DNA of 64,000 bases from Alphaproteobacteria bacterium (GTDB taxonomy: Bacteria > Pseudomonadota > Alphaproteobacteria > UBA828), in the NCBI GenBank assembly GCA_963422645.2, contig CAXXVO010000007.1, positions 480,001 to 544,000 of the forward strand. The letters are read 5' to 3'. Shown in pieces: positions 37,865 through 51,841 of the stretch (positions are counted from its first letter, which is position 1; each line of letters begins with the position of its first letter). A program made the position numbers and the translations under genes. The notes beneath the pieces are model-generated. The model saw only the letters and a list, made by a program, of their open reading frames with translations. It did no database searches and was not told where the DNA came from.

Positions 37865-38887
37865 CAGACTTCCTGACCTCGTGATGCTGGCTGTTCTGGG
37901 CAGCGTGCCGGGAACTCCTTGAATTCTGATACATTTCGGTTGTTTCAGGCGGTTTTTCGCTGGGTGTCGCGCCCGAGGTCTGATAGTATAATTTGATACC
38001 AATTGCACGGTCTCAACCATGCCCAGTACCCTCCCAATGTGCCCTCCAGAGGCGGTCTCGATCGGCAACAGCTGCTTCGCCGTCCTGATCTCGGACGACA
38101 CCTTCACCTACTTTTCCAACCTCATTCCCTTTGACAGCCACGCCGCCGATGACCGCACGGCCATGCTCTTGCGGATCGGCCGCCTCGCGGCGATCAGCGC
38201 GGTCTCGCCGCAGGAACTGGCTGACGCTTTCGCTGTCTCGCGCGCGACGGTGCAGCGCGCACGACGGCGCTACCTGGCCGAGGGCGAAGCGGGGTTCATG
38301 AAGCCCCGGCGCGGTCGCGGGCCGTCGGTGTTCACTCCGGAGTTGGCGGAGAAGGCGACGGCGTTGCTGGCATCGGGCCTGAGCGGCTCTGCGGCGGCCC
38401 GGGTTCTCGGCGTGTCAGCGCCATCGGTCAACAAGTGGCGCCGTCAGGGACTGATCGGCAACACGGAGGCGGATGGGGAGCCCGGACGCTCAGCGCTGGC
38501 TGCGCCGCCTGACGCGGGTGCGGCTCCTGAAGGCCGTGTCGATGAAGAGAGTACCGGTGCCCCGGGGCCGGAGACGGCGCCGGGGCTGGAAGCGCAGCCG
38601 CAAACGGATCGCAGCGCGCGCGATCGGCGGGACCGGCAGGCGCCGATGGGGCGTGCGACTTGCGATGTTCCGGCTCGGGTTCTGGCCAGTTGTGGCCTCC
38701 TGCGGGTCCACATTCTTGGCCTCGCAAACGACGCCTGCGACCGTTGGATCGATGCGGTTCTGAGCGACCTGAACGCCACCGAAACGGTCTTCCCCGGCAC
38801 CCGTCTGCGCATAGTCTACGACATCGACGGGGCCTCGGAATCCGCGCGGCTCGTGTCACCTAAAATCAGCAGAGGTCAGGAAGTCTG
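37865..38887 (+). mobile_element. Internally deleted non-autonomous IS of unclassified family
   Basis: Perfect 16-bp TIR CAGACTTCCTGACCTC / GAGGTCAGGAAGTCTG; 5-bp duplication AAGCT (37860-37864, 38888-38892); the empty site is visible in IS66 copy 2 (GGTAAGCTACCCCG near 40781). Confidence 0.9.
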
Positions 38888-38888
38888 A
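38019..38888 (+). pseudogene. Internally deleted transposase: two HTH motifs plus the extreme C-terminus, no catalytic core seen
   Basis: ELADAFAVSRATVQRARRRY and AAARVLGVSAPSVNKW; LNATETVFPGTRLRIVY..GQEV runs through the right TIR, and the stop TGA uses the first target base. Confidence 0.7.
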
Positions 38889-39023
38889 AGCTACCCCGAT
38901 GTGGCCCGAAGTCCGCCCGCGCGACGGGCACCGATTTTCATTCTATGGGGTGGTCCAGCACGGCGTCGACCATGATCGTTTATGAGAATGGCTCCGCTGT
39001 TGGAGAACCCGTGCCAGGTGAGC

Positions 39024-40529
39024 TTACGCGCACTTGACGGTGGCGATGAGCCGATCCGATGGGCTGGTCAGGGCTTCGATGATATTCCAGCCCTGCTTTC
39101 TGGCGGTGGTGATGACGCTGCGCAGGATGGCGAAGTTCTCGGCCCCCTGCGCGGACCGGAAGCCCCCGGAGATCTTCTGGCGCAGCTTCATCATCCGAAG
39201 GTCGCGCTCGGCCTCGTTGTTCGTGAACCCGACCTCGAGGTCGATCAGGAACCGGAGCACCGCGCATTTGTGGTCGCGCAGCCTCAAGGCCGGATTGTGA
39301 CCGATCCTTCGCTTCCGGCGCTTCTTCCTCTTGCCAGGCGAGAACGGTGGTTGGCTCTCGTGAAAGGCCAGCGCATCGGCGATGATCTCGTCGTATCGGC
39401 GCTCGATCAGCGCCACAAGCCTCGCCGGAACGGCGATATCCTTGTCCAGCGCGATGCGGGCGGCGCGATTGGCTCGGCGCAGGAGCTGCTGCATCCGCCG
39501 GGCCCAAGCCTCCCCTTCGATGTCCACCAGCGCCTGCAACTCCCGCAGGTGATGGGCGTTGCACAGGCCGTGCTCCACCCCTTCCATCGCGAAGTACGGC
39601 TTCCAGTGATCGTGCACGACGATGCCGGAGACACCCGAGAGCAGGGCGCCGCGCTTGCCGCTGACCCGGTACGCCGCCAGCAGCGGCGTGCAGATCACAT
39701 GAAGCCACTGCGTCTGACCGCCGATCCGCAAGCCGGTCTCGTCCATGTGTTTCACCCGCGCCGTGCCCGCCGCCAGGTCCTGTATGTGCAAGGCCGCGTC
39801 CCGCAGCCGCTCGGCCGCCCTCTCGCTCATCGTCGCCAACGTCGCAGCCGTCACCGGCGCGCCGAAGAGCTCGGCCATCACCTGCGACAGCCGATCCTCC
39901 GGCAGGAAGTGAGCGTGCTGAAGGTAGACCGCCACCCCGGCAATGCGCGGGCCGTACTGCACCGGCGCCGACACCCCGTCGGGGAACGCCGCCCGGGTCA
40001 CCGTCCCGCAATGCCCGCAGCACTTGGCATGCGCCCGGTGCTCGGTCACCTCCAGGGGGCTCGGCTCGGGCAGATCGAACACCTGGCGGGCGACGGGCGT
40101 TCCCGCCCTGGCCGCGTCCGAAAGCGGCGAACCGCATCCCTTGCAGGAAGCCGGGACGTGATCCTTCACCCGATCCGGGTGATCGGCGCGGCGCAGCGTC
40201 TTGCCCTTGTGGCCGGGCTGGCCACCGGGCTTGCGGCCCGATTTGCCGCGCAGGCTTCGGGTTCGCCGCTTCGAATTCGGCTTCCTCAGCCCATCGCTCG
40301 AAGGCGGCTTGCCGCTGTTGCCGCTGTTGAGGCCGAGACGGCGCTCCAACTCCTCGATGCGCTCGACGAGACGCGCGACTTGCTCTTCCAGCCGCGCGTT
40401 CTGCTGCCGAAGCCAGGCATTTTCCTCCCGAAGCCGGGCGTTCTCCTCCTCCAGGCGGGCGATCTTCTGCGCGGGCGTTTCGGGCGCTGCTCCCGTCGAA
40501 GGGCCGCGCGGCGACTCGGGATTGCTCAT
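39024..40529 (-). CDS. IS66-family transposase (open frame; HNPAL where the other two read HNLA)
   Basis: NSGNSGKPPSSDG, CKGCG, HMDETG, CNAHHLREL, FTNNEAERDLRM. Confidence 0.92.
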   Translation of the reverse strand: MSNPESPRGPSTGAAPETPAQKIARLEEENARLREENAWLRQQNARLEEQVARLVERIEELERRLGLNSGNSGKPPSSDGLRKPNSKRRTRSLRGKSGRKPGGQPGHKGKTLRRADHPDRVKDHVPASCKGCGSPLSDAARAGTPVARQVFDLPEPSPLEVTEHRAHAKCCGHCGTVTRAAFPDGVSAPVQYGPRIAGVAVYLQHAHFLPEDRLSQVMAELFGAPVTAATLATMSERAAERLRDAALHIQDLAAGTARVKHMDETGLRIGGQTQWLHVICTPLLAAYRVSGKRGALLSGVSGIVVHDHWKPYFAMEGVEHGLCNAHHLRELQALVDIEGEAWARRMQQLLRRANRAARIALDKDIAVPARLVALIERRYDEIIADALAFHESQPPFSPGKRKKRRKRRIGHNPALRLRDHKCAVLRFLIDLEVGFTNNEAERDLRMMKLRQKISGGFRSAQGAENFAILRSVITTARKQGWNIIEALTSPSDRLIATVKCA

Positions 40530-40651
40530 GTCGTTGTTGAGTCATTTCCCGAAATTCCCGTCAAGCCCTTTCCACCAACTCCGAACGAGAAACGCCTCAA
40601 TCCACTGGCCCAAAATGACAAATCAGACGACCTGGGCAGTTACCATTTAAG

Positions 40652-42540
40652 GTAACTGCCCAGGTTCTTGCTGTGAAAATTCTCTGGGATTCGGCACAAC
40701 GCTACCCACGCGACGCCCGTGTGCTCCTCTGGGGTCGCCGGGTTTCACAGCTCACGATGCCCCTCTTGCGGACTGCGACCGGTAAGCTACCCCGATGTGG
40801 CCCGAAGTCCGCCCGCGCGACGGGCACCGATTTTCATTCTATGGGGTGGTCCAGCACGGCGTCGACCATGATCGTTTATGAGAATGGCTCCGCTGTTGGA
40901 GAACCCGTGCCAGGTGAGCTTACGCGCACTTGACGGTGGCGATGAGCCGATCCGATGGGCTGGTCAGGGCTTCGATGATATTCCAGCCCTGCTTTCTGGC
41001 GGTGGTGATGACGCTGCGCAGGATGGCGAAGTTCTCGGCCCCCTGCGCGGACCGGAAGCCCCCGGAGATCTTCTGGCGCAGCTTCATCATCCGAAGGTCG
41101 CGCTCGGCCTCGTTGTTCGTGAACCCGACCTCGAGGTCGATCAGGAACCGGAGCACCGCGCATTTGTGGTCGCGCAGCCTCAAGGCCAGATTGTGACCGA
41201 TCCTTCGCTTCCGGCGCTTCTTCCTCTTGCCAGGCGAGAACGGTGGTTGGCTCTCGTGAAAGGCCAGCGCATCGGCGATGATCTCGTCGTATCGGCGCTC
41301 GATCAGCGCCACAAGCCTCGCCGGAACGGCGATATCCTTGTCCAGCGCGATGCGGGCGGCGCGATTGGCTCGGCGCAGGAGCTGCTGCATCCGCCGGGCC
41401 CAAGCCTCCCCTTCGATGTCCACCAGCGCCTGCAACTCCCGCAGGTGATGGGCGTTGCACAGGCCGTGCTCCACCCCTTCCATCGCGAAGTACGGCTTCC
41501 AGTGATCGTGCACGACGATGCCGGAGACACCCGAGAGCAGGGCGCCGCGCTTGCCGCTGACCCGGTACGCCGCCAGCAGCGGCGTGCAGATCACATGAAG
41601 CCACTGCGTCTGACCGCCGATCCGCAAGCCGGTCTCGTCCATGTGTTTCACCCGCGCCGTGCCCGCCGCCAGGTCCTGTATGTGCAAGGCCGCGTCCCGC
41701 AAGCCGCTCGGCCGCCCTCTCGCTCATCGTCGCCAACGTCGCAGCCGTCACCGGCGCGCCGAAGAGCTCGGCCATCACCTGCGACAGCCGATCCTCCGGC
41801 AGGAAGTGAGCGTGCTGAAGGTAGACCGCCACCCCGGCAATGCGCGGGCCGTACTGCACCGGCGCCGACACCCCGTCGGGGAACGCCGCCCGGGTCACCG
41901 TCCCGCAATGCCCGCAGCACTTGGCATGCGCCCGGTGCTCGGTCACCTCCAGGGGGCTCGGCTCGGGCAGATCGAACACCTGGCGGGCGACGGGCGTTCC
42001 CGCCCTGGCCGCGTCCGAAAGCGGCGAACCGCATCCCTTGCAGGAAGCCGGGACGTGATCCTTCACCCGATCCGGGTGATCGGCGCGGCGCAGCGTCTTG
42101 CCCTTGTGGCCGGGCTGGCCACCGGGCTTGCGGCCCGATTTGCCGCGCAGGCTTCGGGTTCGCCGCTTCGAATTCGGCTTCCTCAGCCCATCGCTCGAAG
42201 GCGGCTTGCCGCTGTTGCCGCTGTTGAGGCCGAGACGGCGCTCCAACTCCTCGATGCGCTCGACGAGACGCGCGACTTGCTCTTCCAGCCGCGCGTTCTG
42301 CTGCCGAAGCCAGGCATTTTCCTCCCGAAGCCGGGCGTTCTCCTCCTCCAGGCGGGCGATCTTCTGCGCGGGCGTTTCGGGCGCTGCTCCCGTCGAAGGG
42401 CCGCGCGGCGACTCGGGATTGCTCATGTCGTTGTTGAGTCATTTCCCGAAATTCCCGTCAAGCCCTTTCCACCAACTCCGAACGAGAAACGCCTCAATCC
42501 ACTGGCCCAAAATGACAAATCAGACGACCTGGGCAGTTAC
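40652..42540 (-). mobile_element. IS66-family element, copy 2 of the tandem dimer
   Basis: Same ends as copy 1; separated from it by CATTTAAG (40644-40651); right flank GGATTTTT (42541-42548). Confidence 0.92.
40920..42426 (-). pseudogene. IS66-family transposase, frameshifted
   Basis: One extra A at 41701-41702 (CCGCAAGCCG versus CCGCAGCCG in copy 1) splits the ORF; could be a sequencing error. Confidence 0.85.
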
Positions 42541-43083: not shown

Positions 43084-43413
43084 GTGAGACTCGCGAAGCA
43101 GCGCGGCATCCACTGCACGCCGGAGAAGTGGGAGCGGATCCGGCGGCGCGCCCGGAAGAACAACGAGACGATCTCGCGCTTCGGCGAGCTCTGCTGCCGG
43201 CGCGCGGCGGAAGCGTTGGGCGCGCCACCGTCAGTGCCGCCGGGCCATCCGCTGGCGCTGCCCGAGGACGACCAGCGGCGCCTGCTGGCGCACAGTCTTG
43301 CGGTGCAGCGCAGGACACGTGTTTCGATCCGGGCGCCGGGGGGAGAGCGCGTCGACCTGCCGCTCGACGCGGTGATCCGCTTCCTGCTGCTGTGCGAGGA
43401 GGAGGGCAATTGA
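43084..43413 (+). CDS. Putative ribbon-helix-helix protein 2
   Basis: KQRGIHCTPEKWERIRRRARKNNETISRFGELCC. Confidence 0.55.
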   Translation: MRLAKQRGIHCTPEKWERIRRRARKNNETISRFGELCCRRAAEALGAPPSVPPGHPLALPEDDQRRLLAHSLAVQRRTRVSIRAPGGERVDLPLDAVIRFLLLCEEEGN

Positions 43414-43862
43414 GCAAGCCGAGAAAGAAGCCGCCCGCGCGCAAGGAGTCGCGCGGGAGGACGTACACGATCTCGTGCACCGACGAGCAGTGGGCGGCGA
43501 TTCAGGACGGAGCGGAGCGGGCCGGCAAGAATGTCTCGACGTGGTTCGTCGAGTGCGCGCTGACCGTGGACCCATGGCCCAGGAAGCACCGCCGGCTGGT
43601 GCTGAACGAGAGGGAGCAGCGCCGCCACGCGCGGGCGGTGGCGGTGAGCGCCCGGAACCTCGGCGCGGACGAGGCGGACGGAGCCGGCGATGTTGGGGCC
43701 GAACTCAGGGCGCTCATGGCCGCGCGGCTGCGCGGGATGGACCGGCGCGGCCGGCGCGAGAACGCGCTGGCGCTGCTGCGCCGGGCGTTCGGCGACGATG
43801 CGGCGCAAACCGTCACCGCGGCGTTCATACCGGACGCGCTGTTGAGCGGCGTGGAAAAGTGA
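43410..43862 (+). CDS. Putative ribbon-helix-helix protein 3, 3' end replaced by the IS21 left end
   Basis: TTG start overlapping the previous TGA, after GGAGGAGG; RTYTISCTDEQWAAIQDGAERAGKNVSTWFVECAL; last residues LSGVEK* are IS21-derived. Confidence 0.6.
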   Translation: MSKPRKKPPARKESRGRTYTISCTDEQWAAIQDGAERAGKNVSTWFVECALTVDPWPRKHRRLVLNEREQRRHARAVAVSARNLGADEADGAGDVGAELRALMAARLRGMDRRGRRENALALLRRAFGDDAAQTVTAAFIPDALLSGVEK

Positions 43863-44025
43863 CCCCCTATTGGAGATGCCGTAATGGGGCTTGGCGCCGG
43901 CGTGCAGCGTCTCGGCCTGTCGCGATGACGGCGAATCGGTTGTCGTTGCCCTTACACGCGTAGCGTGTTCACGGGGTCTTGCCGCAAGGCGCGCCCCAAT
44001 TCCTCTGGAGGAAAGGGCAACGACA

Positions 44026-45066
44026 ATGGACGTCTGTATCGGGCTGGATGTATCGCTGGCAAGCACGGCGGTTTGCGTTCTCGACGAGAAGGGCAAGATC
44101 GCGACCGAGGCGCAGGTCGCCAGCACGCCTGAAGCGCTGGTTGGGTTCCTGCACAAGCTGCCGCACGAGATCACCGCGATCGGTCTCGAGGCCGGTCCCT
44201 TGTCCCACTGGTTGCACAAGGGAATGACCGACGCCGGCTTCGAGGCCGTGTTGATGGAGACCCGGCAGGTAAAGGGTGCGCTGAAGGCCATGCCGATCAA
44301 GACCGATCGCCGGGACGCCGAGGGCATCGCACGGCTGTTGCTGATGGGGTGGTTTCGGCCGGTGCACTGCAAGTCGGTGTCATCGCAAGAGATGCGAGCC
44401 CTCCTGACCTCGCGCAAGTCCGTGCTGGACGCGATCATCCGCCTGGAGGTCTCGCTGCGCGGCGTCCTGCGTAACTTTGGCCTGAAGCTGGGCCTGATCT
44501 CGAAGGGCCGCTATGAGGCCCGAGTGCGGGAGTTGGTCGCCGGCAACGCGATGCTGGAAGCGGCAGCCGAACCGATCCTGGGCGCGCGGGCGGCCCTGCG
44601 CCGCGAGTTCGCCGAGCTGGAGAAGCTGGTCCGCACTCTGGCAAGGCAAGACAGGGCATGCCGCCTGTTGATGACCATGCCGGGCGTGGGGCATGTCATA
44701 GCCCTGACCTTCAAGTCCGCGATCGACGACCCGGAGCGGTTCCGAAGATCGAAGGATGTCGGCCCCTGGGTAGGGCTGACGCCGGCGCGGGAGCAGTCCG
44801 GGGAGAGGGATATTGTCGGCCGGATCACCAAGGCCGGCGATGCCGGTCTGCGCGCGGCTCTTTACCAAGCCGCAACGGTGATGCTGAACCGCACAGGGCC
44901 GAACTGGCTGAAGGCTTGGGCGCTACGTTTGGCGAAGCACAGGGGCAAGAAGCGCGCGACCGTTGCCTTGGCCCGGCGCATCGGTGTTGTGCTTCACCGA
45001 ATGTGGCGGGATGGAACCGAGTTCCGCTTTACGCGCGAGGAAGCGATGGCGCTTCGGACGGCATAG
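44026..45066 (+). CDS. IS110-family DEDD recombinase/transposase
   Basis: GLDVS, GLEAG, KTDRRDA (DEDD); MPGVG; GLTPAREQSG with the catalytic serine; ALARR. Confidence 0.95.
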   Translation: MDVCIGLDVSLASTAVCVLDEKGKIATEAQVASTPEALVGFLHKLPHEITAIGLEAGPLSHWLHKGMTDAGFEAVLMETRQVKGALKAMPIKTDRRDAEGIARLLLMGWFRPVHCKSVSSQEMRALLTSRKSVLDAIIRLEVSLRGVLRNFGLKLGLISKGRYEARVRELVAGNAMLEAAAEPILGARAALRREFAELEKLVRTLARQDRACRLLMTMPGVGHVIALTFKSAIDDPERFRRSKDVGPWVGLTPAREQSGERDIVGRITKAGDAGLRAALYQAATVMLNRTGPNWLKAWALRLAKHRGKKRATVALARRIGVVLHRMWRDGTEFRFTREEAMALRTA

Positions 45067-45480
45067 GCGCGGCTGCATCCCATCGGCAGTCAGCGAGGAG
45101 AGGAGGAAAGAGCCGCGCCTGAAGGTGGGCGAGCCACCAACGTCCCCTCGCCGGGACGCGGTCCCCGATGATGCACGTGGGCCCACTTGTTTGCCGAACC
45201 GGCCTGTCGTGTTCGAGCACGCTGTGGAGATAGGCACTCGGGAACCGATTTGGACTGGGCATGATGTTGGCAGCCGATGCGCTGACCACGGACAGAAGCG
45301 AGAACCCGGCGAAGGACACAAGACGTTGAGCAAGCGCGAGATCGATACGGTCGGCCCCATTGCACCTGACACCGGCAACCTCCTCCGCGCCTCACCCGGC
45401 GCCTCATAGCCAGGCCGAAGGAGCCCCTACACCACGCCAGGAAAACAACTGATTGGCGCGACAATGATCTATTGAAAATC
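45067..45480 (+). ncRNA. Putative bridge/seek RNA region of IS110 copy 1
   Basis: Target guides GGGCCCACT (45179-45187) and TGGAG (45225-45229); donor guides GGCAT (45258-45262) and ACAGAAG (45292-45298); each pair lies in an internal loop. Transcript limits unknown. Confidence 0.8.
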
Positions 45481-45534
45481 GAGCTTGACGGGAAACGCCC
45501 CATTACAGAAGTGGGCCCCTGGGGTCGGACAGTT

Positions 45535-46329
45535 TCATGCGGCGGTTTTGACCGGGGTGCGGGGTTGTTTCTCCTCGAAGCGGTTGGGGCTCAGGTATCC
45601 GAGGGCGGAGTGTAGGCGTCTCTCGTTGTAGCTGTCGATGAAGCGGGGCAGGTGCTCCGCCACGTCTTCCGCGCTCTCGAGGGCCATGGGATAGACGCCC
45701 TCGACCTTCAGGGTCTTCATGAAGCTTTCCATCATGGCGTTGTCGTAGGGGTTGCCGCGCCGGCCCATCGAGCCGACCAGGCCGTGTTCGTCGAGCAGGG
45801 CCCGGTAGGCCTGGGCGGCGTATTGCGAGCCCCTGTCGGAGTGGTGGATGCAGCCGGGTGGCGGGTTGCGGCCCTCGATCGCCGTCGCCAGCGCCGCAAG
45901 GGTTAGCCGGGCATCGATCCGCCGGCCGAGGGCGTAGCCCACGATGCGCCGCGACCACGCATCCATGATCGCCGCCAGATAGACGAAGCCGCCCAGGATC
46001 GCGATGTAGGTCAGATCGGCGACCCAGAGCTGGTTCGGACCATCGACATCGCGCTCCCTGGAGCGGTCCGGGAAGACGGGCTCGTCGTGGTCGCTGTCGG
46101 TGGTGGCGACGAAGCGGCGCCGGCAGGGCGGATGCAGCGCGTGCTCGCGCATCAGGCGCTTGATCTTCTTGTGGTTCACCACCCAGCCGCGATGCCTCAG
46201 CGCCGCCTGCATGCGCCGCCAGCCGTAGGCTTCGAACTCATCCTTGATCGCGTGCATGGCCTCCACCAGCGCGGTGTCGTCTGCCGAGCCCTTGGGCTTG
46301 TCGTAGTAAGTAGAATGCGCGATCCCCAT
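45535..46329 (-). CDS. IS3-family transposase OrfB (DDE integrase core)
   Basis: YGWRRM, WVADLTY, HHSDRGSQY, YDNAMMESF, YNERRLHSALGY. Confidence 0.93.
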   Translation of the reverse strand: MGIAHSTYYDKPKGSADDTALVEAMHAIKDEFEAYGWRRMQAALRHRGWVVNHKKIKRLMREHALHPPCRRRFVATTDSDHDEPVFPDRSRERDVDGPNQLWVADLTYIAILGGFVYLAAIMDAWSRRIVGYALGRRIDARLTLAALATAIEGRNPPPGCIHHSDRGSQYAAQAYRALLDEHGLVGSMGRRGNPYDNAMMESFMKTLKVEGVYPMALESAEDVAEHLPRFIDSYNERRLHSALGYLSPNRFEEKQPRTPVKTAA

Positions 46330-46688
46330 CAGTCGGCATCCTTCGGCGACGGAGAGGCCTTGGGGCCGGTGATGACGGACATGGGCGCGTTTCTCGGCCG
46401 GCGTCCTTGCCGCTGAGCCCCCTTTAGAAACTCGAGCTCCAGGGCCTGCTTGCCGACCAGGCGCTCGAGCGCCGCGATCCGGGCCTCGTATTCCTGGATC
46501 GTGTCGGCCGCCTCGGCGTCCTCGTCGAAGGCGCCGGCCTCGTACTTGTCCACCCAGATCCGGATCAGGGTGCGGGAGAGCTCGTGCCGACGGGCCAGGC
46601 CGTGCAGCGTCTCGCCGGCGAGATACTCCTGAACGACCTGGCGCTTGAACGCGATGCCGTGGGTGCGGTGGGTTCGGTGCTTTGCCAT
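46329..46688 (-). CDS. IS3-family OrfA (HTH plus leucine zipper)
   Basis: FKRQVVQEY..LARRHELSRTLIRIW; LERLVGKQALELEFLKGA; candidate -1 slippery site AAAGGGG near 46419-46425. Confidence 0.9.
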   Translation of the reverse strand: MAKHRTHRTHGIAFKRQVVQEYLAGETLHGLARRHELSRTLIRIWVDKYEAGAFDEDAEAADTIQEYEARIAALERLVGKQALELEFLKGAQRQGRRPRNAPMSVITGPKASPSPKDAD

Positions 46689-46792
46689 GGGCGTCGATCC
46701 TTCGAATGCCCGGTGCACCGGTCAAATAAATTCAAGCCACCTGTCCGGCCCCAGGGGCCCACTTCTGTAATGGGGCGTTTCCCGTCAAGCTC

Positions 46793-47206
46793 GATTTTCA
46801 ATAGATCATTGTCGCGCCAATCAGTTGTTTTCCTGGCGTGGTGTAGGGGCTCCTTCGGCCTGGCTATGAGGCGCCGGGTGAGGCGCGGAGGAGGTTGCCG
46901 GTGTCAGGTGCAATGGGGCCGACCGTATCGATCTCGCGCTTGCTCAACGTCTTGTGTCCTTCGCCGGGTTCTCGCTTCTGTCCGTGGTCAGCGCATCGGC
47001 TGCCAACATCATGCCCAGTCCAAATCGGTTCCCGAGTGCCTATCTCCACAGCGTGCTCGAACACGACAGGCCGGTTCGGCAAACAAGTGGGCCCACGTGC
47101 ATCATCGGGGACCGCGTCCCGGCGAGGGGACGTTGGTGGCTCGCCCACCTTCAGGCGCGGCTCTTTCCTCCTCTCCTCGCTGACTGCCGATGGGATGCAG
47201 CCGCGC
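46793..47206 (-). ncRNA. Putative bridge/seek RNA region of IS110 copy 2
   Basis: Mirror of copy 1; target guide at 47086-47094. Confidence 0.8.
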
Positions 47207-48247
47207 CTATGCCGTCCGAAGCGCCATCGCTTCCTCGCGCGTAAAGCGGAACTCGGTTCCATCCCGCCACATTCGGTGAAGCACAACACCGATGCGCCGG
47301 GCCAAGGCAACGGTCGCGCGCTTCTTGCCCCTGTGCTTCGCCAAACGTAGCGCCCAAGCCTTCAGCCAGTTCGGCCCTGTGCGGTTCAGCATCACCGTTG
47401 CGGCTTGGTAAAGAGCCGCGCGCAGACCGGCATCGCCGGCCTTGGTGATCCGGCCGACAATATCCCTCTCCCCGGACTGCTCCCGCGCCGGCGTCAGCCC
47501 TACCCAGGGGCCGACATCCTTCGATCTTCGGAACCGCTCCGGGTCGTCGATCGCGGACTTGAAGGTCAGGGCTATGACATGCCCCACGCCCGGCATGGTC
47601 ATCAACAGGCGGCATGCCCTGTCTTGCCTTGCCAGAGTGCGGACCAGCTTCTCCAGCTCGGCGAACTCGCGGCGCAGGGCCGCCCGCGCGCCCAGGATCG
47701 GTTCGGCTGCCGCTTCCAGCATCGCGTTGCCGGCGACCAACTCCCGCACTCGGGCCTCATAGCGGCCCTTCGAGATCAGGCCCAGCTTCAGGCCAAAGTT
47801 ACGCAGGACGCCGCGCAGCGAGACCTCCAGGCGGATGATCGCGTCCAGCACGGACTTGCGCGAGGTCAGGAGGGCTCGCATCTCTTGCGATGACACCGAC
47901 TTGCAGTGCACCGGCCGAAACCACCCCATCAGCAACAGCCGTGCGATGCCCTCGGCGTCCCGGCGATCGGTCTTGATCGGCATGGCCTTCAGCGCACCCT
48001 TTACCTGCCGGGTCTCCATCAACACGGCCTCGAAGCCGGCGTCGGTCATTCCCTTGTGCAACCAGTGGGACAAGGGACCGGCCTCGAGACCGATCGCGGT
48101 GATCTCGTGCGGCAGCTTGTGCAGGAACCCAACCAGCGCTTCAGGCGTGCTGGCGACCTGCGCCTCGGTCGCGATCTTGCCCTTCTCGTCGAGAACGCAA
48201 ACCGCCGTGCTTGCCAGCGATACATCCAGCCCGATACAGACGTCCAT
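47207..48247 (-). CDS. IS110-family DEDD recombinase/transposase
   Basis: Protein identical to 44026-45066. Confidence 0.95.
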   Translation of the reverse strand: MDVCIGLDVSLASTAVCVLDEKGKIATEAQVASTPEALVGFLHKLPHEITAIGLEAGPLSHWLHKGMTDAGFEAVLMETRQVKGALKAMPIKTDRRDAEGIARLLLMGWFRPVHCKSVSSQEMRALLTSRKSVLDAIIRLEVSLRGVLRNFGLKLGLISKGRYEARVRELVAGNAMLEAAAEPILGARAALRREFAELEKLVRTLARQDRACRLLMTMPGVGHVIALTFKSAIDDPERFRRSKDVGPWVGLTPAREQSGERDIVGRITKAGDAGLRAALYQAATVMLNRTGPNWLKAWALRLAKHRGKKRATVALARRIGVVLHRMWRDGTEFRFTREEAMALRTA

Positions 48248-48493
48248 TGTCGTTGCCCTTTCCTCCAGAGGAATTGGGGCGCGCCTTGCGGCAAGACCCC
48301 GTGAACACGCTACGCGTGTAAGGGCAACGACAACCGATTCGCCGTCATCGCGACAGGCCGAGACGCTGCACGCCGGCGCCAAGCCCCATTACGGCATCTC
48401 CATATTGGGGGTGATCGGCGTCCAAAATTGCCCCCCCCTGGATTTGTGTCCATGAACACACCTCGTCGTTTGGACGGACGAGGTGGGGGGGAG

Positions 48494-49402
48494 ATGCTGG
48501 TTGTGGAAACGATCGCGAAGATCCGTCGGGATCGTCTGGTGAAGGGCGTTCCGATCAAGAAGCTCGCCCGGGATTTGAGGGTTTCCAAGAACACGATACG
48601 CAAGGTGGTTCGGGGCGATGCGACCTCGCACAGCTACGCGCGCAAGATCCAGCCGATGCCGAAGCTTGGGCCGTGGGTCGACGAGCTCGAGCGCCAGCTG
48701 GAGGCCAACGAGAAGAAGAAGCGCCGGGATCGCCTGTCCCTGCTGCAGATCCATGAGGACCTTGGCGAGCTGGGCTACAAGGGCGGCTATGATGCGGTCC
48801 GGCGCTACGCCAAGGCGTGGCGGCGCCGGCGCCGTCTGTTATCGCCGTCGCAGGCCTATGTGCCGCTGATCTTCGACCCTGGCGAGGCCTACCAGTTCGA
48901 CTGGAGCCATGAGTACGCGCGTCTGGCGGGTGCGACGACCAAGGTGAAGGCGGCGCACATGCGGCTCTGCCACAGCCGGATGTATCTGGTCCAGATCTTT
49001 CCCCGCGAGAGCCAGGAGATGGTGTTCGAGGCACATGAACGTGCCTTCCGCCTCTTCGGCGGGGTCTGCCGGCGGGGCATCTACGACAACATGAAGACGG
49101 CGGTGAACACGATCTTCGTCGGCAAGAAGCGGGACTACAACCGCCGCTTCCAGGAGATGTGTTCGCACCATCTGATCGAGCCTGTGGCGTGCACGCCAGG
49201 GGCGAGCTGGGAGAAGGGGCAGGTTGAGAAGCAGGTGGGAGACCTTCGTGGGCGTCTGTTCGCGCGCAGCCCGCGGGGCCGCTCCTACGCCGAGATCAAC
49301 GAGTGGCTGATGGATCGGTGCATAGAGGAGGCCAAGAAGCAGCCGCATCCGACGATCCCGGGCAAAACGGCGCGAAGATGGAAACAAAAAGGAGTGGAGT
49401 GA
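48494..49402 (+). pseudogene. istA: IS21-family transposase IstA, C-terminally truncated
   Basis: MLVVETIAKIRR HTH, PGEAYQFDWS, IYDNMKTAV, WEKGQVE; the sequence turns non-IstA-like after HPTIPGKT (about 49370). Confidence 0.85.
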
Positions 49403-49959
49403 GTCATGGGATGGGGTGGGTTGCTTTGGTTCCTGATTAAGCGTGATATTACTGGTAGTTGTGGATTGGTGCAAGAGGATTGTGGTGGTGGTGGGCTGAT
49501 GTAAGAGAGGGGAGTCTTGGAGGGGTGAGTTGCATTCTGGGAAGTAAATACGTATGTCTGAGTAGATGGATCTGTCTGAGTGGAGGGCATGCGGTGGATT
49601 TGCGTTTGGATAGAAGCGATAAGGCGCTGAGCTGGAGAGACGTATCGGGATGGGGATGGGTTATTTGCATTATAAGGGGTGGTGCAGGTGATTTTGACAA
49701 GAATGCGGGTCCGGTGAGCTGCGTCAGGCTTGGCTGCAAGGTTCTCGGGGCGCAATCATGAGCCGCAGGCCGGCGGAGCGCCGCACCCAGCACGCGGTCA
49801 TGGCGACGGTGAGCGCGCGCGGTCTTTCAGCGGGGATCGGGGCCTGATCCGCTCGGATTTGTTGAGGTTTTGGGGCGGGTGCCCCTCGGCGAACTTGCAA
49901 GAAGTTCGCCGGGGGGCTTTGTCTCGTGGTGACGGTCACAATCGCCAGAGACGGCCCCA

Positions 49960-50577
49960 ATGTCGCACAACATTTTCCGCCACTCCATGCTTTGCAACGC
50001 CCTGGTCTGGGCCTGGCTGCGCGAGGTCGATGAGGCCGAGGCGGCGCGCTGCCGCGAGGCGGGCTGCCGACACTGCCCCGGCAAGCTGCACAGCGCGACG
50101 TATCCGCGCAAGCCGTACGGTCTGGCAGCCGAGTTGAGGGAAGAGGGCACGCGGCGGTTCAGCTTCTGCTGCGCGGATTGCCGCCTGCGAGCGACCCCAC
50201 CATCGGTACGATTCTTCGGGCGCCGCTTTTATCTGGGCGCCCTGTTCGTTCTGTTGAGTGCACTGGTTCTGAGAGGCGGGGTGCGGTTGCAGACGATCAA
50301 GCGGAAGTGGGGGGTCTCGGTCGCCACACTGCGCCGCTGGCGGAAGTGGTGGCTGGAGGCGTTCCCGGCGACGGAGCCCTGGGGAGCGAAGCGTGGCGAA
50401 CTGGTGATGCCACCCGAGGAGGTGCCGCTGCTCTTCGTGCTGCGGCAGATGCGGGGCGGACGCTTCGGTGAGCGTCTGTTCCTGAGCCTGATCTGGTTCA
50501 AGCCGTGGACGGGCTATTGCGGGCTCGGCGATGGCTCGGCGCCGCCCGCAGAAAGTGTTCCTGTCACGCCCGGATAG
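49960..50577 (+). CDS. Cys-rich, HTH-containing accessory protein upstream of an IS481-like transposase
   Basis: CREAGCRHC..LH...YPRKP, FSFCCADC, TPPSVRFFGRR, GVSVATLRRWRKWW. Confidence 0.65.
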   Translation: MSHNIFRHSMLCNALVWAWLREVDEAEAARCREAGCRHCPGKLHSATYPRKPYGLAAELREEGTRRFSFCCADCRLRATPPSVRFFGRRFYLGALFVLLSALVLRGGVRLQTIKRKWGVSVATLRRWRKWWLEAFPATEPWGAKRGELVMPPEEVPLLFVLRQMRGGRFGERLFLSLIWFKPWTGYCGLGDGSAPPAESVPVTPG

Positions 50578-50626
50578 GGCGTTCTACATGGGCATCTCTC
50601 CGATGCGGCGAGGGAGGGATGCCGGA

Positions 50627-51440
50627 ATGGACAAGGACGACGCAGGCGCCAGGCGCGAGAAGTGGGCCCGGCTGCGCTTTGCGGTGGTGGGGCCGCTTCT
50701 GGCTTCACCGCCGCCTGCAGGCCAGCTGGGGGCCGAGTTCGAGCGTCTGTCGCAGCGCGACTGGGAGCACCCGTCGGGCAAGGGGCCGGTGCGCTTTGCG
50801 GCCTCGACGATCGAGCGCTGGTACTACCGGGCGCGGGCAGAGGAGCAGGACCCGGTCAAGGCGCTGCGCCGGAAGCCTCGGACCGACGTCGGCCGCGAGC
50901 GGTCCATGTCGGCGGGGCTGATCGCGGCGCTGCGCGAGCAGTACCGGGTCCATCCCTCGTGGGCGGCGCAGCTCCACTACGAGACCCTCAAGGCTCATGT
51001 TGCGACCCATCCCGAGCTCGGCCCGATGCCGTCCTACGCGACGCTGACGCGGGCGATGCGCAATCGCGGCCTGGTGCGCGAGCGCCCCAGGAAGTGGCAC
51101 GAGGGTGAGGACAAGCCGGCGGTCGAAGCCCGCGAGGTCCTTAGCTACGAGGTGTCTCGCAGTCACGCGCTGTGGCACGGGGACTTCCACCACGGCAAGC
51201 GCCGCGTGCTGACGGCGTCGGGCGAATGGCAGACGCCCATCCTGCTCGGCTTCCTCGACGACCACTCCAGGCTTGGCTGCCACCTGCAGTGGTACCTGGA
51301 GGAGACCGCCGAGGTCTTCGTCCACGGGCTCTGTCAGGCCTTCATGAAGAGGGACTTGCCCAGGTCCCTGCTGACCGACAACGGCGGGCCGATGACGGCG
51401 GGCGAGGTCGAGGAGGGCTTGCACCGCCTCGGCATCGTGG
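50627..51440 (+). pseudogene. IS481-like DDE transposase, truncated before the third catalytic residue
   Basis: WARLRFAVVGPLL, STIERWYY, LWHGDFHHG, LDDHSR, LTDNG; joined at 51441 to a foreign IS end. Confidence 0.8.
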
Positions 51441-51550
51441 GGGCGCGACACCCAGCGAAAAACCGCCTGAAACAACCGAAATGTATCAGAATTCAAGGAG
51501 TTCCCGGCACGCTGCCCAGAACAGCCAGCATCACGAGGTCAGGAAGTCTG
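51441..51550 (-). mobile_element. Isolated 110-bp left end of the element at 37865
   Basis: Reverse complement of 37865-37974, including the TIR. Confidence 0.9.
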
Positions 51551-51841
51551 AGATTACAGTGCCAGTCGGCGTCGAGCCCGCTTGCCGAACAACAGCGTGA
51601 CGCCCATCGCGGGACTCGAGGCCTGAATGCGGCCCGATCGTACCGGGCTCCCACGCCACTTCGCCTTGTGGGACTCCATTCATTCTGCTAAATTCCACAT
51701 CATGGCAGTGAACTGTCATCAATTGATGTTGTTCGCAACGCAACTTCTACCGAACTGTCGATCCGAAAAACAGGCAGACTAAGATAAGAACAACCACACT
51801 GCGTTGCTCGCTTAACGACAAGAATTTCGGGGAGGCTAGCA

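Follow-up and report, generated by a model that had tools for sequence, protein, structure and literature searches.

A 64,000-nucleotide (nt) window of an alphaproteobacterial genome (assembly GCA_963422645.2, contig CAXXVO010000007.1, positions 480001 to 544000; G000:C8:480001-544000 in our numbering) holds three insertion sequences (ISs) nested one inside the other. The innermost, an element of the IS1111 group of the IS110 family that we call ISA, interrupts both terminal inverted repeats (TIRs) of an IS3-family element at the same base and in the same orientation relative to each TIR. We consider it very probable, from what the sequences tell of the mechanism, that ISA is an RNA-guided DEDD recombinase/transposase element, and that the target loop of its downstream RNA would be programmed for TGG-AG-TGGGCCC, which makes up the outermost 12 nt of the TIR in one IS3-family lineage. 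Two separate, recent insertions would have hit the two TIRs at one and the same base; since the TIR is inverted at the two IS3 ends, both copies of ISA face inward, and the insertions are read as recent because the copies are 100% identical. The IS3 would have inserted before them in the left end of an IS21-family element (IS-X), 28 bp from its terminus, so that the two inner tiers both occupy recurrent, specific sites; we infer this order of events. The evidence lies in the anatomy of the nest, in the site and orientation specificity of ISA, and in the covariation of guide and target among its relatives.

The source assembly comprises 5.9 Mb with 67% G+C in 23 contigs. At the center of the locus is a perfect inverted repeat with arms at 43871-45532 and 46741-48402, 1662 nt each and 100% complementary, around a spacer of 1208 nt. 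Each arm is made up of TGGAG, the 1636-bp ISA, and the next 21 nt. The two ISA copies are 100% identical over 1636 bp, and at both IS3 TIRs the insertion site is TGGAG^TGGGCCC. In silico excision of both copies yields an IS3 of 5 + 1250 + 5 = 1260 bp with the TIRs TGGAGTGGGCCCCTGGGG(T/C)CGGACA and TAT on either side, and this IS3 in turn sits 28 bp within the end of IS-X, giving three tiers. The first-pass annotation had described two apparently identical 1636-bp IS110 copies facing each other around IS3 orfAB, a 1260-bp IS3 with TIRs and a TAT duplication after their removal, and insertion at TGGAG^TGGGCCC in one TIR-relative orientation. The complementarity of the arms, the restored lengths, ends, and TAT, and both junctions bear that description out. 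The features of the locus, with window coordinates and strand, are as follows.

43840-43867, plus strand: outer 28 nt of the left (IstA-side) end of IS-X, severed by the IS3; in intact copies GCGTGGAAAAGTGACCCCC-TAT-TGGGGGTGATCGGCGTCC is unbroken. The first 10 nt here differ from the canonical terminus, and the start is uncertain by a few bases.
43868-43870, no strand: TAT, left copy of the 3-bp target duplication of the IS3; a single TAT stands here in intact IS-X.
43871-43875, plus strand: TGGAG, outer 5 nt of the IS3 TIR, split from the remainder.
43876-45511, plus strand: ISA copy 1, IS1111 group of the IS110 family, 1636 bp.
44026-45066, plus strand: ISA transposase gene, copy 1, 346 amino acids (aa), with a DEDD/RuvC-like domain and a PF02371 domain.
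45140-45319, plus strand: predicted seekRNA/bridge RNA, copy 1, from the RNAalifold consensus of seven relatives.
45158-45248, plus strand: predicted target loop.
45179-45187, plus strand: putative top-strand guide GGGCCCACT; it is AG+TGGGCCC (core and inner TIR) reverse-complemented.
45225-45231, plus strand: putative bottom-strand guide TGGAG; the AT after it equals the first 2 nt of ISA's left end.
45249-45302, plus strand: predicted donor loop.
45258-45262, plus strand: GGCAT, reverse complement of the ISA left end ATGCC.
45292-45298, plus strand: putative donor guide ACAGAAG, identical to the ISA right end.
45512-46761, minus strand: inner 1250 bp of the IS3, including the inner parts of its TIRs.
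45535-46416, minus strand: IS3 orfB.
46329-46691, minus strand: IS3 orfA.
46762-48397, minus strand: ISA copy 2, with its transposase gene at 47207-48247 (minus) and predicted RNA at 46954-47133 (minus).
48398-48402, minus strand: CTCCA, outer 5 nt of the other IS3 TIR.
48403-48405, no strand: TAT, right copy of the IS3 target duplication.
48406-49400, plus strand: rest of IS-X, with the inner left end and the 5' part of istA; the open reading frame (ORF) runs to 49402, carries an rve domain, and is truncated near 49400.

By its sequence, ISA is a member of the IS1111 group of the IS110 family, and every membership test that was run agreed with this. Its protein matched the Pfam domains PF01548 (DEDD_Tnp_IS110; 61 bits) and, at the C terminus, PF02371 (84.4 bits), and it scored 241 bits against the NCBIfam model NF033542, "IS110 family RNA-guided transposase" (cut-off, 140). 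Passages of PMC11187229 (Siddiquee et al. 2024) characterize the IS1111 group by a transposase of 330 to 350 aa and the motif GL-P----S(T)G; the ISA transposase, with 346 aa, contains GLTPAREQSG. The same passages describe subterminal inverted repeats usually of 11 to 13 bp, with terminal extensions of 7 bp on the left and 3 bp on the right. ISA has the ends ATGCC-GTAATGGGGC ... GCCCCATTAC-AGAAG, in which the subterminal repeat (GTAATGGGGC/GCCCCATTAC) is a perfect 10 bp, one base under the usual range, and the extensions are 5 + 5 as drawn and 7 + 3 when the repeated AG is given to the left end. This AG, the core, stands just outside the left end and recurs at the right end, so that the insertion point can be written as TGGAG^TGGGCCC or as TGG^AGTGGGCCC. 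There is no true target duplication, since the flank and the end have only the 2-nt AG in common. The noncoding sequence amounts to 445 nt (45067-45511) downstream of the gene that encodes the transposase (tnp), versus 150 nt upstream (43876-44025).

BLAST found six copies of ISA in this genome at 99.9 to 100% identity (five at 100% and the one on contig C3 at 99.877%): two in the window, one on C18, one on C11, one at C8 417733, and one at C3 194339. TGGAG stands immediately to the left of all six, and TGGGCCCCTGGGG(T/C)CGG follows each of the four that have an intact right end; none sits in an unrelated target. What is left of the IS3 beside the copies on C18 and C11 measures about 80 nt and 17 nt, respectively. 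The copy at C8 417733, cut at position 1624, and the one at C3 194339, cut at 1630, retain the TGGAG tip only, because the adjacent IS3 is deleted. Together with the left copy of the window, these two have a common IS-X/TAT/TGGAG context. The uninterrupted 12-mer TGGAGTGGGCCC occurs four times in the 5.9-Mb genome versus 2.85 expected from base composition; three of the occurrences are free IS3 TIRs and the fourth is an unrelated site on C6. The free IS3 ends, all of which start with TGGAGTGGGCCCC, come from two copies: a complete one on C5, at 93.6%, contributes both its ends, and one on C7, at 99%, contributes its left end. Four of the seven perfect IS3-TIR targets are thus occupied by ISA. 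As to the two cut copies, that at C8 417733-419356 ends at position 1624 against unrelated DNA, and that at C3 192710-194339, cut at its 3' end, joins ..CGCCCCA to ATA and the outer 28 nt of IS-X, a junction that looks as if a deletion, by way of a short overlap of CCA, had taken out the IS3 together with a second ISA.

The 3' noncoding region of ISA holds candidate guide segments that would explain this specificity. Compared with ISB, an element about 85% identical in the same genome (ends ATGCCGTAATGGGG...CCCCATTACGGAAG; flanks ..TCAG^GTTC..), this region is conserved except for two short blocks. The two-block pattern recurs across seven distinct relatives, the flanks of which are all different, and the blocks are the only runs of variable columns inside an otherwise conserved stretch. 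In ISA the blocks GGGCCCACT and TGGAG together spell the outer 12 nt of the IS3 TIR. When guide and target were scored over 9 + 8 = 17 positions in the seven relatives, guides matched their own targets at 11 to 16 of 17 positions, versus a mean of 7.4 and a maximum of 10 for the 42 non-own pairings. The donor guide likewise varies with the right end of the element (ACAGAAG versus ACGGAAG), relatives ending in ..ACGGAAG carrying ACGGAAG at that place. ISA variants of 88 to 95% identity from other genomes and metagenomes retain both guides, the sole change being one base outside TGGAG in locus L029.

In the RNAalifold consensus of the seven relatives, the guide blocks fall on opposite sides of a predicted internal loop, with a 17-pair stem closing it and a hairpin within it, and a second stem-loop bears GGCAT and ACAGAAG. 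In that fold, which was derived from the same sequences, 95.9% of cells are paired, versus 33 to 39% with the partners slid. Passages of PMC11187229 and PMC11208160 (Durrant et al. 2024) describe seekRNAs and bridge RNAs as encoded in a long noncoding region downstream of tnp, with matches to the two target strands that overlap at the core and a second loop that matches the element ends; the former places the top-strand match of IS1111 seekRNAs 5' of the bottom-strand match, and the latter describes the two-loop layout of bridge RNAs. The ISA guides have the same order, top-strand match 5', and at the level of sequence prediction the noncoding region of ISA fits the published arrangement. An Rfam scan of 43800-45600 (E <= 1) gave no bridge or seek RNA family and one chance snoRNA match. 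The top-strand guide lies inside a 10-nt palindrome, GTGGGCCCAC (45177-45186), because the TIR core GGGCCC is itself palindromic.

Relatives of ISA appear to use the same region for other targets. One type, about 85% identical to ISA, is found in genome G004 (locus L011, 1501-3150) inside a relative of the IS3, where its insertion point (ATGGCAAAG^CACCG) directly follows the three codons with which orfA starts. Once joined, its flanks show 90% identity to IS3 positions 1260-1015. Of its guide blocks, one matches the orfA-start site at 8 of 9 positions and the other at 7 of 8. Its left flank recurs in G013 (L020), and an insertion of this type is probably present in G035 too (C1 3252876). Judged by guides and flanks, two or more lineages of the clade aim at separate parts of a single IS3 lineage. 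The flanks of ISB are unique in the genome, and members of the clade do not all target an IS. Elsewhere on C8 (626900-630500) two ISB copies lie head to tail, with the right end of the first joined to position 56 of the second, which is without its first 55 nt.

Outside this genome, ISA is found at the same kind of site. The right junction was sought in one genome per species and then in metagenome contigs. It was present in two further species genomes, a metagenome-assembled genome labelled Alphaproteobacteria (L029) and one labelled Rhodospirillales (L030), and seven metagenome loci had an ISA-type right end, at both IS3 end types; some of the seven are probably one element assembled repeatedly. 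The related genome G010 contains an ISA-type left junction, TGGAG|ATGCCG (L016). Among 40 related genomes searched, full-length relatives of about 85% identity are common, whereas only G010 and G011 yielded the 3' part specific to ISA. The loci retrieved from related genomes with the IS3 as query had 20 ends with a TGGAG-like tip, all 20 uninterrupted, and two more with divergent tips. ISA is a rare and probably recent occupant of this IS3 lineage. The first-pass annotation had proposed a site- and orientation-specific element that parasitizes an IS3 lineage, the free copies of which should begin TGGAGTGGGCCCC. The flanks in this and the other genomes support that proposal, as do the three free ends here and the 20 ends in relatives. 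Megablast against plasmids returned only distant IS110 (about 70 to 73%) and IS3 (about 74%) relatives and no named element. Three of the metagenome loci (L033, L035, and L037) have a chimeric piece beside the ISA-type right end and IS3 end, consisting of TGGAG, a left-end-like ATGAC tip, the subterminal repeat, and then inverted ISA right-end interior; it may be the product of recombination between ends. We rejected the interpretation of L035 as an ISA with a wrong left flank, as its guides indicate a different, ISB-like element beside an ISA-type right-end remnant.

By its sequence, the occupied element belongs to the IS3 family. Elements of this family have TIRs that end in 5'-TG...CA-3' and a short (3 to 5 bp) target duplication. 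The present element has TGGAG...CTCCA, with duplication of TAT in the window and of GAT at the free C5 copy. Its orfA encodes HTH_Tnp_1 and its orfB encodes rve (NF033516 transpos_IS3, 300.6 bits), in different, overlapping frames that are still intact in the window, and its TIRs are 25 nt long with a T/C difference between them at position 19. In IS3-family transposition the tip of the TIR is the site of cleavage and strand transfer, and the inner part is bound by the transposase. Each ISA insertion places 1636 bp between the 5-nt tip, with its TG/CA, and the inner 20 nt. With tip and binding part separated in this way, transposition should be blocked, and an IS3 with both ends split should be immobile unless ISA leaves precisely. 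One contig from sequencing run X15, which has the same organism label and comes from a different study, joins 43873 to 45510 and so skips exactly 1636 nt, with a 2-nt ambiguity; its shorter side is only 25 nt. An ISA-free form of such a junction therefore exists. The contig may stem from another IS-X/IS3 locus, and is a hint of polymorphism or excision and no more.

Some of our results weigh against RNA-guided targeting by ISA as set out above. The guide of L014 matched its own target at only 11 of 17 positions, the bottom-strand guide matches just 5 nt of the target, compensatory changes occur in only 2 of the 70 pairs of the consensus fold, and single-sequence folding of 45140-45330 gave z = -0.38. 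That the predicted RNA is made and used we infer from its sequence. With GGGCCC palindromic, the top-strand guide alone cannot set orientation, and orientation must therefore rest on the TGGAG guide and the core. The three ISA copies with a common IS-X/TAT/TGGAG context need not be independent, because recombination between IS-X copies could spread one event. Finally, the long-range structure of the locus comes from the assembly alone: contigs from the sequencing runs do not span the 1.6-kb repeat, and runs X15 and X19 have no contig placed on 46744-46980. Holes in the cover of the IS3 interior in run X1 prove nothing. The short guide matches (9 + 5 nt), the palindromic GGGCCC, and an RNA known here from sequence prediction would also suit a target read by protein, that is, by the transposase or by a host or IS3 protein bound to the TIR, with the RNA matches incidental. 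To this we give only a very slight chance, as guide and target covary in seven relatives whose transposases share about 85% DNA identity, the NCBIfam name of the family includes the term RNA-guided, and passages of PMC11187229 state that experiments demonstrated RNA guiding in four members of IS1111 and one of IS110.

Identity among the ISA copies might instead reflect a single insertion, into one TIR only, followed by copying: recombination or gene conversion, acting across the two TIRs of the IS3 or across IS-X/IS3 nests in other parts of the genome, would have produced the second ISA. The window pair and the four others were reported as 100% identical (99.877% for the C3 copy), the IS-X/TAT/TGGAG contexts at C8 417733 and C3 194339 are identical, and the genome is filled with repeats, including about 70 copies of IS-X and more than 100 of another element. 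However, the TIRs are inverted, only 25 nt long, and still different (T/C) at position 19, and conversion would have had to carry 1.6 kb in inverted orientation. ISA also lies at IS3 ends in differing contexts (C18, C11, and flanks of the right-end, or IRR, type), and both IS3 end types are occupied in other genomes and metagenomes, all of which targeted insertion covers by one mechanism. Recombination could account for some of the common contexts, but not for the occupied ends elsewhere, and as an explanation of the whole it is quite improbable. The least probable of the alternatives, in our judgment barely credible, is that the inverted second ISA is an assembly mis-join or palindromic chimera. 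A perfect 1662-nt inverted repeat around a short center is a shape that chimeric long reads can yield, and the run evidence consists of contigs that support junctions only. Yet the center is a complete, nonpalindromic IS3 with orfA and orfB intact, the TIRs differ at one base, the inner flanks differ, and stepwise removal restores first a 1260-bp IS3 with TAT and then an unbroken IS-X end. The assembly, moreover, resolves about 70 IS-X-end matches and more than 100 of another repeat in 23 contigs, and run contigs do cross the left outer and left inner junctions, although their shorter side, 18 to 28 nt, falls below the 31-letter rule for bridging. Targeted insertion of ISA at each end of the IS3 remains the reading we adopt.

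The outer tier, IS-X, is 2513 bp long, and BLAST with one of its ends gave about 70 matches in the genome. An intact copy (L031) encodes IstA (NF033546, 285 bits) and IstB (NF038214, 261 bits) in the istA-then-istB order of IS21; in the window only the 5' part of istA (Pfam rve) is left. The IstA-side end of intact IS-X reads ...GCGTGGAAAAGTGACCCCC-TAT-TGGGGGTGATCGGCG... without a break, and the IS3 and ISA of the window lie exactly at that TAT. Other IS3-type ends are found at the same TAT (C8 417728 and C3 194344), and IS3 ends at GAT or GAC after TGACCCC(C/T), in the other IS-X end, are found on C5 (both ends, 89524-90783), C11 (61103), C7 (230783), and C18 (202914). The IS3 is thus recurrently 28 bp inside either end of IS-X, with a 3-bp duplication of TAT, GAT, or GAC. 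In related genomes about 8 of 20 IS3 ends, judged by eye, are in IS-X-like site sequence, so insertion into IS-X-type sites is a preference and not a rule. Read on the other strand, the inner IS3 TIR has ..GACCCCAGGGG.., and its likeness to the IS-X site (GACCCCCTATTGGGGG) could be the basis of the preference. We had taken an "empty site" on C5 for the left end of IS-X; ORF and family calls identify it as the IstB-side end.

The region as a whole is an IS pile-up in a very IS-rich genome. At 38000-42540 the window has an element in two side-by-side copies, which matches more than 100 other places in the genome. At 49810-51440 it has an element with about 24 copies, with an rve/HTH_32 ORF at 50531-51691. 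An ORF of 244 aa at 43128-43862 enters the outer 28 nt of IS-X, where it ends. It was considered as IstB and rejected, its only Pfam match being a sub-threshold NikA-like one (23.8 bits; cut-off, 27), and it may be a gene truncated by the insertion of IS-X. In several runs labelled as sponge metagenome (among X2 to X9), 20 to 28% of sampled words of the stretch were present, and one of them, X2, contained ISA- and IS3-like contigs at 95 to 99% identity; we draw no conclusion on habitat from this.

Several known systems resemble the present one in part. For IS4321 and IS5075, of the IS1111 group, the target is the 38-bp TIR of Tn21-family transposons, according to text in PMC11187229 and PMC11208160 that cites Partridge & Hall 2003. 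Like ISA, they have subterminal inverted repeats and a fixed position and orientation inside the TIR of another element, but their target is a Tn3-family transposon TIR and that of ISA is an IS3-family TIR, 5 bp from its tip; for ISA, segments that would spell the target are located here. In Pseudomonas putida H, the inverted repeats of IS1384 are the target of IS1383 (title of Muller, Lauf, Herrmann 2001, cited in PMC11208160), and a table in PMC5141477 assigns IS1383 to the IS110 family and IS1384 to the IS5 family. It too is an IS110-family element that targets the inverted repeats of another IS, of IS5 type there and IS3 type here. ISEc21 (IS110 family) targets a conserved codon block in IS3-family transposase genes, according to a passage of PMC11187229. 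ISEc21 and, by prediction, ISA are RNA-guided IS110-family elements specialized on IS3-family elements, but ISEc21 has its noncoding region upstream and its target in coding sequence, whereas ISA has its noncoding region downstream and its target at the TIR tip. The L011-type relative of ISA, like ISEc21, sits within IS3 coding sequence (orfA). The published seekRNA/bridge-RNA layout is shared by ISA, the RNA of which is known here by sequence prediction. The first-pass annotation had left to the literature whether IS3-TIR targeting has been reported. TIR-targeting IS1111 elements and an IS110 element that targets IS3 genes are indeed already known, and in full-text searches of the literature we found no IS1111/IS110 element aimed at an IS3-family TIR, ISfinder, TnPedia, and supplements lying outside the scope of that search and leaving an earlier record possible. 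ISA adds the case of an IS3-family TIR to the TIR-targeting IS1111 elements already known.

A bolder interpretation, which we offer tentatively and regard as possible though rather unlikely, is that this IS1111 clade has had its guides retuned to different parts of the IS3 and consists of dedicated, reversible "transposons of a transposon" that silence and release it. If so, ISA would hit the TIR tip and the L011 type the third codon of orfA; silencing would come about by uncoupling the tip from the binding site or by disruption of orfA, and release by precise excision. In this genome the result would be a site-specific hierarchy in three tiers, of IS21-type, IS3-type, and IS1111-type elements, in which most remaining IS3 ends are occupied or decayed, and the locus would offer a natural model of how one mobile element controls another through an RNA guide.

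For annotation, the nest accounts for a 5.5-kb stretch that otherwise resembles scrambled transposase genes. With ISA, the IS3-family TIR joins the short list of transposon ends that IS1111 elements use as safe landing sites. The identification of its putative guide segments means that target choice could be read directly from the element, and relatives of about 85% identity with different guides would make the clade a ready-made series for following the natural retuning of guides. The finding also raises the issue of whether elements of this kind curb other insertion sequences in IS-rich genomes.

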